A stretch of 64,000 nucleotides of DNA from a virus (taxonomy: Duplodnaviria; Caudoviricetes): positions 32,001 through 96,000 of IMG/VR virus record IMGVR_UViG_3300028591_003923. One strand, 5' to 3'. Shown in pieces: positions 1,497 to 32,921 of this stretch. The notes beneath the pieces were generated by a model, which worked only from the letters and a program-made list of their open reading frames with translations, was not told the origin of the DNA and made no database searches. A program made the position numbers and the translations under genes. The first letter of the stretch is position 1. Every line of letters starts with the position of its first letter.

Positions 1497-1525
1497 TTGA
1501 CAAACTTAAAAAATTCTGATATAAT
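1497..1525 (+). promoter_or_regulatory. consensus sigma-A promoter driving the ncRNA locus
   Basis: TTGACA 1497-1502, 17 bp spacer, TGn-TATAAT 1517-1525; no convincing + strand ORF for 1.4 kb downstream. Confidence 0.85.
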
Positions 1526-1628
1526 ATATATGTAAGAAAAAGAAAACAAACATTGATGCATTTCAGGAACATGTTGATGTTTAATGCGGGCGGCTTTCGT
1601 ACTCACTTCCTTTCGCCGCCCGCGCACT

Positions 1629-1700
1629 ACCAAGTGTAATCGTGCCACCAGTACGACCTGGTGAGAGTCTCAAGCCTCTGCAAAACGAGAGAGCACAGGT
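1629..1700 (+). ncRNA. twister ribozyme (type P1)
   Basis: GTG-UAA-UCGU-GC-[P3 CACCA/UGGUG]-AGA-GUCUCAAGCC-UCU-GCAAA-ACGA-GAGAG-CAC matches the twister P1/P2/P4/T1/T2 architecture; predicted cleavage U1637/A1638. Confidence 0.8.
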
Positions 1701-1704
1701 TAAA

Positions 1705-2275
1705 AAGTTAATGGTTGTGTCAAATGCAAAGAGTGCGTTATTGACTGCGGGTTAAAGGTGAGTCGTTATCACCTGAACAGCTGAGCAGAGAGGGAAATAA
1801 TCAAAGGCCAAAAGAAATACCTCGGAAGTACAGTAAAGGCACATTTACCGAAAGAGCTGTGGACGTTAACTTCTGTGAAAGGTTGGGCTGAGTGTATGAG
1901 AAAAGCTCTTGGTCCACCGTTGAATTTACCGACGTGTACCTTGAATTCTAGCTTCTATGGCGGCGGCTAGATGTGAGGATAGGTAGGTTTGACAGCTGTC
2001 ATGAATTAGGGCGAGTTACGGGCCTACAATACCGGACTGGGTGCGGGTAACATTAACCCGTCGTGCGCAAGCAATGTTAGAGCTGCCAAAGCGGTGGAAT
2101 CCGTTCGTTAGGAAGTTACGAGAGACATTCCCGTTGACGTTGCGATAGAGTCCGTGAGGTGGAACGATAGACCGCCCCTGTGTACACAACAGATGGTCTT
2201 GGGGAACACCTTTCCCCAACCAATGGCACCAATAGGAGTCGCCTTCACGCGGCGGTGCTGTTTCTACTGAGAACT
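1705..2275 (+). ncRNA. unclassified large structured RNA
   Basis: GC-richer than flanks, no credible ORF, many hairpins, long-range GTTGTGT(1714)/ACACAAC(2184) pairing, lies between twister and ROOL-like RNA. Confidence 0.55.
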
Positions 2276-2279
2276 CCTT

Positions 2280-2939
2280 ACAATTTCATAAATAAATATA
2301 CTACTTGAACTCAGTGTAGAGATGCTAAACTAGTATCGCTGAGGCGCAGGCTGACAGAGTTACCCAGGACTACGAAACAAGGATACTTGCGGATAGTTGG
2401 CTGTGGAAGCGGGGCGACCCGTGGAAAGAAGACCTGGAAGGTCAACGGCTGAAAGATGTACAGTGCGGCGCTTCGGTTATCGCAGATAAAGGTAGCATGT
2501 GGGTCGGGGATGTAATAGACGCTCCTGTGGAGAAGAATCCAAGTTAGGGACTTAGCTGGTGACTGCGTTCACACCTTGGAAATACCAATAAATTCCTTTG
2601 CCGTGAAGCGGTGAGAACCGTGTATAAGACCTGCGTGTCGCGTACGAGTAGCACAAATGGCAAGACTTGGACAGAAGGAAAATTGTACAAGTGTAATAGG
2701 TTATACACTCTTATTCTAATCCGTACAGTGTGTGAAAGTTAAAGGTAGACATTCCTTTATGGACTAATGGCTCTGCGGAGTAGTCGCTAGGGAACGGCGG
2801 CAGTAACAGTAGTTCCTGGTTATTGAGGACGGGACTTGCAACCCCGTACATGGCAGTAACTATCCATTGACTGAATATATCTGAAGGTAGCTAGAAGTAA
2901 GATGAAAGTCTCTTGTTGTATATTTATTTATGAAATTGT
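2280..2939 (+). ncRNA. ROOL-like large ncRNA
   Basis: Perfect 22 bp closing stem 2280-2301/2918-2939 enclosing ~620 nt without ORF; size, tRNA-rich Firmicutes phage context and GAGTAGCACAAA, GTGAAAG, GGTAGCT segments resemble ROOL as recalled. Confidence 0.6.
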
Positions 2940-2961: not shown

Positions 2962-3246
2962 ATGAAAAAGGTTTATGTAAATGAGTACAATGGCGATGCA
3001 TACGAATCTGCAGAAGATTGCCTAAAGTCAGAAGAAGAATACAAAATTGAACGAGAGAAAGCTGCAGCAGCTGCCGCTAGGAAAGCAGAGTATGATGCAA
3101 GAGTAGATGCAGCTTATGATAAGGCTGAGGAAGCTTTAAATGAATATATTAGAGTACTTTCAGAAGAAACACCAATTGACGTTGATAGAGTGATGCTTGA
3201 AATGATAGCTAATGTACTGTTTAGAAAGGACGAGGACGATGACTAA
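2962..3246 (+). CDS. hypothetical coiled-coil protein
   Basis: GGAGG RBS before ATG 2962. Confidence 0.65.
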   Translation: MKKVYVNEYNGDAYESAEDCLKSEEEYKIEREKAAAAAARKAEYDARVDAAYDKAEEALNEYIRVLSEETPIDVDRVMLEMIANVLFRKDEDDD

Positions 3247-3367
3247 AGAAGAAAAGTTGCGGGTACTTAAGTTCCGTTTACATATAATTAAGGAGCGTGG
3301 CAAATCACTTGAATCTCCAGGTGTAATGCACAAGCTCGAAAGACAGATAAGAAATCTTGAGGGGTAG
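3239..3367 (+). CDS. small basic hypothetical protein (42 aa)
   Basis: Overlapping start with GAGGA RBS; followed by a terminator. Confidence 0.5.
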   Translation: MTKEEKLRVLKFRLHIIKERGKSLESPGVMHKLERQIRNLEG

Positions 3368-3391
3368 TCACTGACTATCCTTCTTTTTTTT
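3359..3391 (+). terminator. intrinsic terminator
   Basis: GGGTAGTC/GACTATCC hairpin followed by a T-run. Confidence 0.7.
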
Positions 3392-10289: not shown

Positions 10290-10340
10290 TTTGACAGACA
10301 TTAATATATTTCCTTTCTTTATTAATTTTTTCTTTTCGCT

Positions 10341-15299: not shown

Positions 15300-15797
15300 A
15301 TGTCACAGTATTTAGAGTTTTATATTAGACATAACGATGATTATCTTCCAATTGCATCATATTGCGGTAGTTCCGCATATATGGAAATGTTTGATGATTA
15401 TGTTCCAAGTTATAGTGGACTTCGTACGGTCACTGAATCAATGCTGAGTTCGGTGCGCGCGGATGTTCAGCAGAAAATTAAGGAGAATGAACAGTGCATT
15501 AAAAGAGCTGAGAAACTGAAACAGGATATTCTCCAGGCTAATAACTCAATGGAAGAGAAAGTTGAATATATGGCAGGAGAAGACCAGGCTATAGAAGAAA
15601 CGGAAGATGAAAATAGGGCACTTGATAGTGTAGACCACTTCATTGATTTCCTTTATAATATACTTGAAGAAGCTGAATTCGGTGAGCATGAGGGAATACA
15701 GAAAGATAAGTATCTCTATGCGGGTGTAGAACCTGCGATTTGTAAAGACTACGATGAAATGACTCCAGAAGAAGTAAAGGAGGCGCGCGGATGGTAA
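15300..15797 (+). CDS. hypothetical coiled-coil protein
   Basis: Promoter and AAAGGAG RBS. Confidence 0.7.
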   Translation: MSQYLEFYIRHNDDYLPIASYCGSSAYMEMFDDYVPSYSGLRTVTESMLSSVRADVQQKIKENEQCIKRAEKLKQDILQANNSMEEKVEYMAGEDQAIEETEDENRALDSVDHFIDFLYNILEEAEFGEHEGIQKDKYLYAGVEPAICKDYDEMTPEEVKEARGW

Positions 15798-17005
15798 TAA
15801 ATAAAATGGACATGCACAAGAAACGTCAACGTGCACTCGCCCATGTAGAAAAAATAGCATGGATACGTCCAATAGAGGGCGCCGACAACATAGAACTTGT
15901 CGGTGTTCTTGGTTGGGTATGTATTGCTAAAATAGGTGAGTTTAAAGTTGGTGACTGGTGCGTTTATATTGAGATAGATTCTAAAGTGCCTGAAAAAGAG
16001 TGGTCTGAGTTTCTGCGCCCGAAGCACTTTAAGATTAAGACAATGAAGCTTGGTAAGTTTAAAGTTATCAGCCAGGGTATAGCACTGCCGCTCTCTACGT
16101 TTGACATAGACATACCGCAGGAAGAGGGTAAAGACGTTACGAAGCTGCTTGGGGTTAAGTATTCTGTAAGGGAAGATAACTTTAGAAAATCAGAAATAGA
16201 TAAGTATAAAGCTATGGCGCAGCGTAGACCTGACGTGTTCAAAAAACCGTGGGCGCGCAGAATGATGAAGAACCCAATTGGAAAACGTATCATGTTTTTA
16301 CTCTATGGTAAGAAACGTGATGACCAGAAAAAGTTTCCAAAGAAGTTCCAGTTCGTGCATCCGACCGATGAAGAAAGAATAGAGAACATGCCATGGATTC
16401 TTGATGACCGCGATGCTCGTTACATTAAAACAACGAAAATAGACGGTACTTCAACTACGTTCATTCTTGAAAAGAAACTGTTCGGTTACGAATTCTATGT
16501 GCTCTCGCGCAATGTACGTCAGTTCACACCAGAACAGGGCAACTATCATTCACAAGATGAAAATGTGTATTGGGAAGTTGCAGAAAAATATAACGTAAAG
16601 GATTTCCTTATGAACTTTATAAAAGGCGGTAACTACCGTTATGTAGCTCTGCAAGGAGAAACCTATGGTTGCACTGAAAAAGGTGTAAAAATACAGGGCG
16701 ACCCGCATCACATTGGTGAACTTAGATTCGCAGCCTTCAACCTCATTGATTCTAAAATTGGACGTTGGGATTCGGTAGAAGGGCGCAAATGGTGTTCTTC
16801 GTTTGGAATACCTTGGGTGCCAATTGTAGATACGAACTGCCAGGTTGAATCAGACATGGAAGCTTTCAAACTTACTGCCGATGGACCATGTGAAATACCA
16901 GGTTCAACGGGGCTGCGCGAAGGCTATGTTTATAGGAAAGTTGGTGACCCTAACTTTTCGTTTAAGAACGTGTCAAGGAAATATTTACTGAAACATGGAC
17001 AGTAG
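15791..17005 (+). CDS. ATP-dependent RNA ligase (DRB0094/Rnl5-like)
   Basis: N-terminal PIEGADNIE OB module, KIDG motif I, QGE, EGxV, FKNVSxxYL. Confidence 0.88.
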   Translation: MVINKMDMHKKRQRALAHVEKIAWIRPIEGADNIELVGVLGWVCIAKIGEFKVGDWCVYIEIDSKVPEKEWSEFLRPKHFKIKTMKLGKFKVISQGIALPLSTFDIDIPQEEGKDVTKLLGVKYSVREDNFRKSEIDKYKAMAQRRPDVFKKPWARRMMKNPIGKRIMFLLYGKKRDDQKKFPKKFQFVHPTDEERIENMPWILDDRDARYIKTTKIDGTSTTFILEKKLFGYEFYVLSRNVRQFTPEQGNYHSQDENVYWEVAEKYNVKDFLMNFIKGGNYRYVALQGETYGCTEKGVKIQGDPHHIGELRFAAFNLIDSKIGRWDSVEGRKWCSSFGIPWVPIVDTNCQVESDMEAFKLTADGPCEIPGSTGLREGYVYRKVGDPNFSFKNVSRKYLLKHGQ

Positions 17006-17710: not shown

Positions 17711-18592
17711 ATGCAGAAATTTATAATGTGTTGTGGATTGCCAGCGTCAGGAAAAACATATTGGACAGTATATAAATGCATCGTAGAAGACGAAAATTTA
17801 GCTTTGCTTTCTTCTGATGGATTTCGTGAACTGCATCCAGAGTATGATAACAATGCAATCTTTGAATTAATGCACAAATATACAATAGAAAGCTTGGAAG
17901 CAGGGAAGACTGTAATTTACGATGCAACGAACCTGGCGCGCAAGCATAGGATGGCAATTTTGACAGAGGTAAAACGTAAGTTTCCTGCTGTGTTTTGCAG
18001 TATTGAAGTGTTCATGGCACCAATAAAGGTATTAAAGGAACGCAACTCGCATAGGACTGGCGCAGAGTGCGTACCGGATGAAGTTTTTCAGAAAATGCTG
18101 TGCAGCTTTCAGTTCCCACAGTTCTTTGAAGGCTGGGATGAGATTCATATGAACGAACATAACCAGTACCAGCTTGCTGATATGGCTAATGCGACTGACT
18201 TTGACCAGATGAATCCACATCATAAGCTTACCTTATGGGACCATTCGTCGAAGGCGCGTGAAATAATGAAAGACCACTACGGTGATGCAGTTATGCAAGA
18301 GGCAGCTTTCTTTCATGACTTGGGCAAACTCTATACTCAGACATTTGATGAGAACGGGGTCGCGCACTACTACGGTCACGAAAACGCAGGAGCATATATG
18401 TATGCACTCCATGCATTTGAGCTTGGACTTTACTCATTCAACGAGATATTAGACATACTGTTTTTAATCAACTACCATATGCGTCCATATCAATGGTCAA
18501 ACCGCACATTTCAGAAAGACCTGGAGTTATTCGGTGCAGATAAAATTAAAAAGTTAAAGTTAATTCACTTCTGCGATGAAGAAGCACATTAG
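17711..18592 (+). CDS. polynucleotide kinase (AAA_33 P-loop) fused to HD phosphohydrolase
   Basis: GLPASGKT, DATN, then HH...H...HDLGK...HE HD motifs. Confidence 0.88.
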   Translation: MQKFIMCCGLPASGKTYWTVYKCIVEDENLALLSSDGFRELHPEYDNNAIFELMHKYTIESLEAGKTVIYDATNLARKHRMAILTEVKRKFPAVFCSIEVFMAPIKVLKERNSHRTGAECVPDEVFQKMLCSFQFPQFFEGWDEIHMNEHNQYQLADMANATDFDQMNPHHKLTLWDHSSKAREIMKDHYGDAVMQEAAFFHDLGKLYTQTFDENGVAHYYGHENAGAYMYALHAFELGLYSFNEILDILFLINYHMRPYQWSNRTFQKDLELFGADKIKKLKLIHFCDEEAH

Positions 18593-18940: not shown

Positions 18941-19201
18941 TGGATAGAGAAGACAAGATACAGTTTGGACTAAATATATTATTTGTTGTTTGTGCCGTAT
19001 TGGATTACATCTACGGTTTCACTGCCATTGAAGACCCAGTAATGCGACATTTTAACAACATGATAGTGTTCTATGGTGTTATGACTTATTCTAACGTAGC
19101 ATTTTAACAACGGCGCGCAGCGTACGTTCAAAAATATCTTTTTGACTTTTTTATAAAATTCATATATAATATATATAGAAAGTAAGAAAGGAAGTAACAA
19201 A

Positions 19202-23226: not shown

Positions 23227-23565
23227 TTACTTGGCACGCATCTTTTCGTCATGCTCAATTTTTTTGGCTTTCTCTTCGGCTTTCTTTTTTGCCTTGAGTT
23301 CTTTTTCCTTGAGTTTATGCTCGTAATCTTCGGCTTCGGCATAACCGTCAAATGGTTCTCTGCCTTTGTCTGCGCCAGTAGGAATTGTAATTGTAATTAC
23401 TGCCCACTTTTCGTCACCATTTTCATCAACGCAAGGGGTACAAATTGCATTAGATTTGTACTGTAAAATCTCATAATTATCTTTTGAAAAATATTCTTTG
23501 ATGAGTTCAAGAAAGCCCTGTCTGAGATTTTCATTTGCGATTTTGTTTGATACCATATATATCAC
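23227..23565 (-). CDS. hypothetical protein, PTGADKGREP family paralog 1
   Basis: Shares long identity blocks with 26325. Confidence 0.8.
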   Translation of the reverse strand: MIYMVSNKIANENLRQGFLELIKEYFSKDNYEILQYKSNAICTPCVDENGDEKWAVITITIPTGADKGREPFDGYAEAEDYEHKLKEKELKAKKKAEEKAKKIEHDEKMRAK

Positions 23566-23612
23566 TTCCTTTCAAGTATATGATACTACTTTTATAGTAT
23601 ATTGTCAAGTGT

Positions 23613-26971: not shown

Positions 26972-27154
26972 TGTTTTACTTCCTTTCTTTTCCTTTTGTA
27001 ATTAAATTATATATTATTAAAATATGTTTGTCAAGTATTATTTTTTAAAAATGACGTCTAATGTTTTGTTAATCTTAGACGTTTAACGTCTAAACATTTC
27101 CCCAACAAAAAACCGTCACATTTCTGTGACGGTTTCCGTGACGGTTAGCAAAGT

Positions 27155-29350: not shown

Positions 29351-29513
29351 TGTTTTTACTTCCTTTCTGTTCTCCCTTGGAACAATTATATATTACCATA
29401 TCATATACGTAATGTCAATAGATAAATTAAAAAAAGATAAATTTATTTGACGTCTAAGTTTGAAGAGGGACTTAGACGTTTAACGTCTAAAATAAAAAGG
29501 TTAAAAACAACCG

Positions 29514-31610: not shown

Positions 31611-32921
31611 ATGAACAGATTAAAACTAGACTTCAGCTTAGAAACAGCTGAGGAACGCAAAAACTTTATAGACACATACATTGTCCAATTCCCCGACCTT
31701 ACTCAGACAGAAGCGGAAACCATTGCGGATTATTTGCTGTGGGGCAAGGACGCACAAGGACAGCCTATAGGTGCGGGAACGGGCCTTAAAACACGATGGA
31801 CGAAAGGCGACGACATTGAATCGCTTGACGCCGTACTTGATAATCCGGCGTATACGAATGTCCAGTTCCAGCCATTCACCGAAGCCACGCCGTTAAAGGC
31901 CGAGCGCAAGGTATTTAATCGCCAGGCCGTACGTGAGGCCGCACCGGACTACCTAAGAGACTCGTTTGAGGCTTTATGGAGGAAAATTGACGAGGATGAC
32001 CTATTAATTAACTTCTACGAACTGGGCGTAGGTAAGCGGGATAAGCCACCGCGCAAGGAATTACTTGACCGATTCAGTGAGTCAGATCAGGTTGTACTTA
32101 GTCGGCGCGCAGCCGAACTTAGTCAGTTTCAGTATTTGAAGTTGAGACATGAGCTTGTGGAGTTAAGACGGGAGCAATTTACGATGAGAGATTCGTTTGT
32201 AAATACGTTAAACCCACATCAAGGACCTACGGGACTAGACCGAGTCCAACAACATTTCGGACTTGACTTGGACATACTCCCGCTAGGTACTGCGACCGGC
32301 CGAACCGGAGAATTAATTTTCAATACAAACTTTGATCCGCGCGCCCTGAACGAAGAACAACTACGTTTAATCGCTCAGTTACTTAACGAAAAACGCGAAG
32401 TTGAGCCAGGCCCAACCGTAATTGATTTCCGTGACTTAGAAACAGTTTATCAACTTTACCTTATGCGAGAGGACTGCGCGGACCAAATTGAACGCGAACA
32501 CGAAATTAACTTCGTTGAAGGCAATTTGGAAGATATATATCGTACCTTAGACTTCTACGAATCAATTGCCGATTTAACCGAAGCGCAGCATAAACTGTTA
32601 CGAATGAAGGAGGCCCACGTACACAACGCCGATATAGCCCGGGTACTAAACGAGGAATTCGGTAAGAATTATACGGCGAACTATATAAGTACAATATTCA
32701 GACAAAAAATTATTGAAAAGATTAATGCGGCCGCCCAACTTCATTTAGATTCGGTAGAAAATTGTTTCTATCCAGAGAACTTTAAACAATGTACTGAGTG
32801 TGGAAGAGTTTTACTTTTAGACGAAAGAAATTGGGTTAGAAAGAACAAATCAAAGGATGGATTTCAGAATAGATGTAAGAGATGTGATAGAAAGAAAAGG
32901 AAGAGAAAAGGAGGCGATTAA
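31611..32921 (+). CDS. putative DNA-binding regulator (C-terminal sigma-r4-like HTH plus Zn ribbon)
   Basis: LTEAQ...NADIARVL...NYIS; CTEC...CKRC; promoter at 31559-31587. Confidence 0.6.
   Translation: MNRLKLDFSLETAEERKNFIDTYIVQFPDLTQTEAETIADYLLWGKDAQGQPIGAGTGLKTRWTKGDDIESLDAVLDNPAYTNVQFQPFTEATPLKAERKVFNRQAVREAAPDYLRDSFEALWRKIDEDDLLINFYELGVGKRDKPPRKELLDRFSESDQVVLSRRAAELSQFQYLKLRHELVELRREQFTMRDSFVNTLNPHQGPTGLDRVQQHFGLDLDILPLGTATGRTGELIFNTNFDPRALNEEQLRLIAQLLNEKREVEPGPTVIDFRDLETVYQLYLMREDCADQIEREHEINFVEGNLEDIYRTLDFYESIADLTEAQHKLLRMKEAHVHNADIARVLNEEFGKNYTANYISTIFRQKIIEKINAAAQLHLDSVENCFYPENFKQCTECGRVLLLDERNWVRKNKSKDGFQNRCKRCDRKKRKRKGGD

Follow-up and report, generated by a model that had tools for sequence, protein, structure and literature searches.

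A type-P1 twister ribozyme with a U-A pseudoknot pair behind a conserved promoter and hairpin in a phage operon: a probable separator of hairpin RNA from exchangeable cargo

Judged by its sequence, structure and covariation, the segment 1633-1697 of the DNA analyzed here (a 64,000-nt stretch of the Caudoviricetes genome of a sheep-gut phage, positions 32,001 to 96,000 of the IMG/VR record IMGVR_UViG_3300028591_003923; hereafter, the window) is confirmed as a type-P1 twister ribozyme. It belongs to a sub-variant in which the middle pair of the pseudoknot T1 is U-A and is probably functional, serving as a general separator behind a promoter and a hairpin. The fold is conserved and covaries among relatives, and the module recurs with the same layout from locus to locus (features of the window are collected in Table 1). 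The scissile bond is predicted to be U1637/A1638, and we infer both cleavage of this bond and the chemistry of the resulting ends.

Table 1. Features of the twister locus and of related genes in the window.
Feature	Position	Strand	Remarks
Sigma-70-type promoter	1497-1525	+	TTGACA, 17 nt, TG-TATAAT; 12/12 consensus, extended -10
Predicted 5' cleavage product	1532-1637	+	~105 nt, from promoter and cut site; predicted 2',3'-cyclic phosphate end at U1637
GC hairpin	stems 1586-1594 and 1615-1623	+	20-nt loop with ACUUCCUUUC at 1605-1614
Type-P1 twister ribozyme	1633-1697 (1629-1700 with extended P1)	+	covariance model, clade and T1 covariation
Twister P1	1634-1636 with 1694-1696	+	GUG with CAC
Twister P1, possible extension	1629-1631 with 1698-1700	+	ACC with GGU
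Twister cleavage-site triplet	U1637 A1638 A1639	+	
Twister P2	1640-1643 with 1685-1688	+	UCGU with ACGA
Twister GCC element	1644-1646	+	after P2
Twister pseudoknot T2	G1644 C1645 with G1674 C1675	+	
Twister P3	1646-1651 with 1658-1663	+	
Twister P4	1664-1667 with 1676-1679	+	
Twister loop L4		+	UCUCAAGC
Twister pseudoknot T1	C1669 U1670 C1671 with G1691 A1692 G1693	+	
Twister GA	G1689 A1690	+	directly 5' of the T1 3' triplet GAG (1691-1693)
Cargo RNA	1638-2224	+	587 nt, of which the twister makes up the 5' 60 nt; ends predicted as 5'-OH and 2',3'-cyclic phosphate
HDV-like (theta-like) ribozyme candidate	2225-2278	+	predicted cut U2224/G2225; cross-locus covariation
HDV-like P1	2225-2230 with 2254-2259	+	
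HDV-like P2	2234-2239 with 2273-2278	+	
HDV-like P3 and L3	2241-2243 with 2251-2253; L3 2244-2250	+	
HDV-like P1.1 and J4/2	G2260 U2261; J4/2 from C2267	+	
ROOL RNA	2285-2931	+	RF03087, full-length, 255.8 bits, E 3.5e-57 (cut-off 99.1)
First protein gene after the RNA block	2962-3246	+	~94 aa, no Pfam family
First convincing intrinsic terminator 3' of the promoter	3359-3383	+	11-bp stem, then T8; after two small ORFs
RNA ligase	15791-17005	+	PHA02142 OB-fold and PF09414 RNA_ligase
P-loop polynucleotide-kinase-like (AAA_33) and HD phosphohydrolase fusion	17711-18592	+	candidate RNA end-healing enzyme
Ribosome-binding site with GAAAGGAAGU	19186-19195	+	
Ribosome-binding sites with GAAAGGAAGU	23564-23573, 26978-26987, 29358-29367	-	

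At its gathering thresholds, Rfam reports no twister in the window, which reflects the threshold rather than absence of the ribozyme. A permissive search of 1400-2400 with the twister-P1 model (RF03160) matched 1633-1697 on the plus strand with 52.2 bits (E 1.3e-10), under the gathering score of 67.2, in an alignment that covers positions 1-68 of the 68 of the model. When the whole genome was searched (129.5 kb; 129,514-bp virus record), the same segment was the sole match (E 4.1e-12). The core nucleotides (U1637-A1638-A1639, G1644-C1646, A1672-C1675 and G1689-A1690) are all present and are invariant in the alignment of the clade described below; C1681 replaces the consensus U, and P1 has only 3 bp beside the predicted cut. 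A hairpin at 1624-1637, which competes with the twister in the minimum-free-energy fold, is not kept in the relatives and was discarded. The sequence-only reading had recognized the core elements in their order, delimited the ribozyme to 1629-1700, and placed the cut between U1637 and A1638. The RF03160 alignment, the structure and the covariation uphold that order, the covariance-model alignment agrees with both the span and the predicted cut, and the Rfam twister-P1 search proposed there as a check indeed returned a full-length match, though one below the gathering threshold.

The main departures of the window twister from the Rfam consensus, GUCUC for GUCCC in L4 and GAGAG for GAGGG, are the two sides of a single pair, the middle one of T1, which is U-A in place of C-G (CUC:GAG instead of CCC:GGG). 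Because a covariance model cannot credit pseudoknots, it penalizes both sides of this compensated pair, which accounts for the score below the cut-off. We examined T1 with four pattern scans of the viral collection, parsing every match and retaining cores in which P2 was completely paired and P1 had 2 bp or more, two features that the patterns did not demand. The L4 triplet CCC was combined with the 3' triplet GGG in 53 distinct viral cores and CUC with GAG in 33, whereas mixed combinations were found in none (Fisher's test, 1.5e-24, a value that ignores relatedness; the cores come from several unrelated groups). The residues that we took to pair in T1 and T2, presumably as in the published twister crystal structures, are in the case of T1 supported by this perfect covariation of the middle pair; the window twister thus represents a natural variant that is common and in which T1 is intact. 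Members of the U-A clade score about 48-58.5 bits, all below 67.2, and among the U-A T1 variant twisters scored, one alone passed the Rfam cut-off (L012, 67.6 bits), so that most of these variants go unannotated.

The 33 distinct U-A phage cores are located in viral loci L007-L075 (for example, L041:6832-7000 and L032:7444-7573). U-A variant twisters other than that of the window adjoin hammerhead II, pistol and RAGATH-24 motifs. In one large U-A group, a RAGATH-24 RNA ends 8 nt 5' of the twister and would also obtain its 3' end from the twister cut, and mini-tmRNA matches lie near twisters of the U-A variant group.

Pattern scans of viral and metagenome contigs yielded 13 distinct twisters that all have a P3 and share the P2 sequence UCGY; together they constitute the clade. 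With the full fold, including T1 and T2, imposed on these 13 sequences, 94.8% of the cells are paired, compared with 26-48% in slid controls; individual helices are paired at 98-100%, except P1 (82%), and both pseudoknots at 100%. Nine pairs, distributed over P1, P2, P3 and P4, changed on both sides, as exemplified by C-G to U-A in P1, ACCAG/CUGGU versus AAGU/ACUU in P3, and AGA/UCU versus AAG/CUU in P4. In L002, a close relative with the same block, the twister differs from that of the window by C1681U, a change toward the consensus, and by C1631U in the extended P1, where the pair is kept as G.U. An exact 27-mer search of viral contigs gave no match, and neither did the clade pattern scan of the genome collection, so that no host prophage was identified. 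More distant relatives, L003-L005 (42% identity in the flanking 154-aa protein), carry a tRNA array at the place of the twister-cargo-ROOL block, and the array of L005 includes a mini-tmRNA match.

In all clade loci, the twister is accompanied by a promoter and a conserved GC hairpin, with an equivalent promoter preceding each module and the twister beginning 10-15 nt after the hairpin. In the window, the consensus promoter precedes the twister by about 100 nt, and a second, weaker promoter is found at 1411-1439; from the position of the consensus promoter, transcription would start near 1532, which together with the predicted cut would give the 5' small RNA the length of about 105 nt that had been proposed for it. 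Across the clade, the hairpin stems covary around a loop whose motif, UUCCUUUC, is the same in every locus. Furthermore, the loop sequence ACUUCCUUUC is the exact complement of the 10-mer GAAAGGAAGU, which recurs at four other places in the window (0.17 expected by chance), always with an ATG 6-8 nt downstream. Given that the loop complements a recurrent ribosome-binding site, the released 5' hairpin RNA may itself be a functional product. A second hairpin, at 10293-10335, directly after the last tRNA of the array, presents the same UUUCCUUUCUU loop; with its AT-rich stem (UUAAUA/UAUUAA) and the T-run behind it, it resembles a terminator that bears the same loop motif. A frame of 27 codons, from an ATG at about 1556 to the UAA of the twister at 1637-1639 (1556-1639), was judged a coincidence: L028 has a comparable frame, but L029 and L091 have it out of frame, and it lacks a ribosome-binding site.

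Whereas the upstream hairpin is the constant partner of the twister, the large RNAs behind the twister are variable cargo. In nine distinct loci, including the window, the twister module is followed by a cargo RNA of 222-587 nt, an HDV-like fold and, 10-35 nt later, a ROOL RNA. In L036, a 222-nt RNA ended by the HDV-like fold leads to a homologue of the window ORF 2962-3246, and in L091, a ribosome-binding site and a homologue of the same ORF follow about 70 nt after the twister, with neither cargo nor HDV-like fold nor ROOL. The 587-nt cargo shared by the window and L002 has no detectable similarity to the 222-387-nt cargos of other clade loci, and the cargos of L028, L029, L036, L081, L083, L085, L087, and L089 are mosaics of modules common to them. 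The window cargo matched no Rfam family in the permissive search of 1400-2400; compensatory changes relative to L002 (for example, GGUGA/UCACC to AACGA/UCGUU near 1756-1774) indicate that it is structured. Pairing of GUGCCA (1642-1647) with UGGCAC (2224-2229) was considered as a closing helix of the cargo and rejected, because the 3' arm spans the HDV-like cut and belongs to P1 of that element and hence is not part of a helix of the mature cargo.

The invariance of hairpin and twister, together with the exchangeability of the cargo, argues that the module is a general separator rather than a device dedicated to large RNAs. The sequence-only reading had described the twister as a built-in maturation device for the large RNAs downstream; the processing function in this proposal remains the likely one, the dedication to large RNAs does not hold, and the twister would not suffice as the sole device, since a second ribozyme (the HDV-like element, cutting at U2224/G2225) and separate trimming of the ROOL RNA at about 2291-2293 would also be needed. 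A similar revision applies to the idea that the twister heads a 1.4-kb phage non-coding transcript. The twister does lie at the head and large structured RNAs do follow, but the transcript is probably not a free-standing one: no terminator was found between the promoter and 3359-3383, and the module runs straight into a gene in L091 and L036. Most likely, the non-coding block is the long 5' part of an operon transcript.

The HDV-like fold was detected with a structural descriptor at the equivalent place in ten loci. In the cross-locus alignment, 95.1% of the positions are paired, compared with 29-52% in slid controls. Both sides changed in 10 pairs, and P1 opens with a G.U pair that is invariant in nine distinct sequences; a nested double pseudoknot with G.U at the base of P1 and the predicted cut immediately 5' of P1 is thus supported across the loci. 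The P3-L3 segment reads GCC-UCCYCGU-GGC followed by GG, which we take to resemble the genomic HDV ribozyme. On the single sequence, a loose HDV structural descriptor was not significant (18 matches in the window versus about 8.5 in shuffles), so that the element is supported by the cross-locus alignment and not by the single-sequence descriptor, and the Rfam HDV models had no match at E up to 10 in 1400-2400. For the C-N-R-A motif of J4/2, which begins with the candidate catalytic C (C2267 in the window), relatives have CUAA, CCAA or CUGA directly 5' of the 3' strand of P2; in the window, two further bases separate CUGA (2267-2270) from this strand, which makes a 6-nt J4/2, and P1.1 includes one non-pair. 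The predicted activity of the window copy, and with it release of the cargo 3' end, is less certain than in the relatives.

The ROOL RNA behind this element is closed by a 22-bp helix (2280-2301 with 2918-2939), and nine tRNAs are also detected in the window by Rfam at the curated thresholds. Among cultured phages, the sequence shared with the window is limited to a 43-nt piece of the ROOL core in Enterococcus Herelleviridae. One of these viruses, Enterococcus phage EFDG1, has a ROOL with 260.6 bits (L206 2201-2903; KP339049.1 50726-55768) that is unannotated in its record and is located inside a tRNA array, where tRNA-Ser and tRNA-Met flank it and a promoter-like sequence precedes it. This locus contains no twister or HDV-like fold; thus, bracketing by ribozymes is not universal for ROOL.

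Six metatranscriptome runs hold parts of the block, and four of these, each from another study, were aligned; the data are assembled contigs rather than raw reads and cannot map RNA ends. The contigs of the cargo begin at 1658 (from the sheep-gut run X2, with 100% identity), 1660 and 1667, that is, 20-29 nt 3' of the predicted cut and inside the ribozyme, and end at 2174 or 2187. ROOL contigs are separate from those of the cargo, start at 2279-2310, and suggest that ROOL is trimmed separately. Contig depth is zero at 1562-1615, 2210-2263 is likewise without cover, and none of the assembled contigs of the four studies joins the leader to the cargo. As a weak hint, this pattern is consistent with mature RNAs that are separate from each other and with the absence of a stable precursor linking leader and cargo. 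A 665-nt contig of run X24 (cattle gut, from a relative with about 95% identity) is a circular permutation of ROOL that joins 2928 to 2293 with an ambiguity of 2 nt, both ends being in the closing helix; it reflects either a circular form of ROOL or template switching from one true RNA end to the other. If correctly placed, the joint 2928|2293 implies a 2-nt 3' overhang, the geometry that RNase III produces. In run X2, a ROOL contig of identical sequence starts at 2291.

The following course of events is proposed for the window. Most likely, the transcript folds the twister co-transcriptionally and is cut between U1637 and A1638. The 5' product would be the ~105-nt hairpin RNA with a 2',3'-cyclic phosphate at its 3' end; the downstream RNA would begin with a 5'-OH at A1638 and retain the folded ribozyme at its 5' end. 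A second cut at U2224/G2225, made by the HDV-like ribozyme located 587 nt downstream, would then release the cargo RNA as a discrete molecule, ROOL would be trimmed separately, and the small genes would continue on the same transcript. The twister would thus be the maker of the 3' end of the hairpin RNA and of the 5' end of whatever follows. The 2',3'-cyclic phosphate and 5'-OH ends are, as stated in PMC8782182, established for both the twister and the HDV-like ribozyme classes.

That the motif has lost its activity, or resembles a twister by chance, and does not cleave, as the score under the gathering threshold and the short P1 could suggest, is very improbable in view of the E-value of 1e-10, the retention of all core nucleotides, the compensatory changes in every helix across 13 relatives, and the perfect covariation of T1 in a variant that recurs in 33 distinct phage cores. 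A real possibility, if one short of an even chance and compatible with the separator function, is that the twister mainly makes the 3' end of a trans-acting hairpin RNA that lacks a terminator of its own and acts against ribosome-binding sites or as a mimic of the 16S 3' end, the large RNAs being incidental cargo. Hairpin and twister are the only invariant pair, and L091 has both in the absence of cargo, HDV-like fold and ROOL; the stems covary around an invariant loop motif; the exact 10-nt complementarity to four ribosome-binding sites exceeds expectation; and RAGATH-24, another structured RNA, lies directly upstream of unrelated phage twisters. However, any anti-Shine-Dalgarno-like loop would match ribosome-binding sites, and the hairpin has no cover by RNA contigs, although library preparation may simply have lost so small an RNA (about 105 nt). 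Somewhat unlikely, in our judgment, is a protective function, whereby removal of the triphosphate leader leaves a 5'-OH on a compact pseudoknotted end that shields the RNA from 5'-end-dependent decay. Since the cut is at its 5' edge, the ribozyme stays on the 3' product; the module directly precedes an mRNA in L091 and L036; and bacterial twisters have been proposed to process operon transcripts, with consequences for their stability (PMC6765202). Yet the cargo contigs begin well inside the ribozyme, and the 5' end could equally be nibbled.

The fate of the ribozyme-made ends is a related matter, because the sequence-only reading had suggested that the Pnk/HD and RNA ligase of the phage could heal or join them. 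Domain matches show that both genes are indeed encoded in the window (Table 1); RtcB was not found in the phage, nor was an Rnl1-type ligase in a search made without a positive control. That these two enzymes heal the cargo ends and then ligate them, to each other in a circle or to a different RNA, appears improbable, and we regard closure of the ribozyme ends of the cargo, and perhaps of neighboring operon RNAs, into circles as equally doubtful. The presence of the two genes, the end chemistry of both ribozyme classes and the circularly permuted contig of the neighboring ROOL are in favor of such a pathway. Against it, no circular or permuted cargo contig was seen among the contigs of four studies, despite a cargo contig of 522 nt, RtcB is missing, and the 3' tail of the cargo pairs with the twister P1 at 0-4 of 8 positions in register, compared with 5-8 for the leader. 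The tail thus cannot replace the leader strand of P1, and ribozyme-templated circularization, which we also considered, was rejected as unlikely. Moreover, heal-and-seal pairs of the T4 Pnkp/Rnl1 type classically repair tRNAs cut by host anticodon nucleases, and the phage has a large tRNA array. The window genes resemble T4 Pnkp and Rnl1 in that a kinase/phosphatase and an RNA ligase would act on ends of the twister type (5'-OH and 2',3'-cyclic phosphate), and differ from them in that the kinase is fused to HD and the ligase is of PF09414 with a PHA02142 OB-fold. If circularization did occur, it would constitute a natural phage pathway for circular structured RNAs, with the permuted cattle ROOL contig as its first trace.

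The separator arrangement has an engineered counterpart. In synthetic hammerhead-RNA-HDV cassettes, an RNA whose ends are defined is cut out of a longer transcript, and the window holds what would be a natural version, with a self-cleaving ribozyme on the 5' side and an HDV-type one on the 3' side. Unlike in the cassettes, the twister stays on the released RNA, and the upstream piece is itself conserved. Among natural systems, the twister class was first described by Roth et al. 2014 (as cited in PMC6154101 and PMC6765202). With type-P1 twisters (RF03160), the ribozyme of the window shares the P1-P2-P3-P4 order, the two pseudoknots, the U-A cleavage step, the conserved GCC, AAGC and GA elements, and the association with phages, whereas the U-A middle pair of T1 sets its clade apart and places it below the Rfam cut-off. 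Phage twisters have been described as clustered with hammerhead and related motifs, and phage and bacterial twisters alike as functional orphans (PMC6765202); other phage twisters are found among hammerhead, pistol and RAGATH clusters, whereas that of the window is solitary and heads a transcript in which a conserved hairpin precedes it.

The closest published relatives of the downstream element are the theta ribozymes of gut phages (Kienbeck et al. 2024, PMC10879173), which are minimal ribozymes of the HDV-like type and process the 3' ends of tRNAs. Like these, the ribozymes of the window would be small self-cleaving end-makers built into phage non-coding transcripts, and the downstream partner has the nested double-pseudoknot plan with, in most loci, a minimal P4. 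In contrast to theta ribozymes, which were defined next to tRNAs, the locus of the window is headed by a twister and would release a hairpin RNA, a cargo RNA (222-587 nt across loci) and ROOL, rather than tRNAs. ROOL and GOLLD genes are known from phages, near tRNA arrays and possibly co-transcribed with them (Weinberg et al. 2017, PMC5737381; Kretsch et al. 2025, PMC12286853). The window likewise holds a large phage RNA, here in the same transcript as a twister; flanking ribozymes, a processing pathway or a circular form are not described in these two papers, and a link between ROOL and twisters was not found in the literature searched. Thus, the ribozyme belongs to a known class, whereas the hairpin-twister-cargo-HDV-like-ROOL layout is new for ribozyme-based RNA processing in phages.

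Collectively, these results offer the twister a concrete, albeit predicted, job, namely separation of a conserved hairpin RNA from exchangeable large-RNA cargo. In addition, the Rfam threshold for twister-P1 systematically misses the common U-A T1 variant, with the consequence that phage twisters are under-annotated. Expression and maturation of ROOL and similar giant phage RNAs are not described in PMC5737381 and PMC12286853; in the window, the twister together with the HDV-like ribozyme would release a discrete 587-nt RNA just ahead of ROOL.
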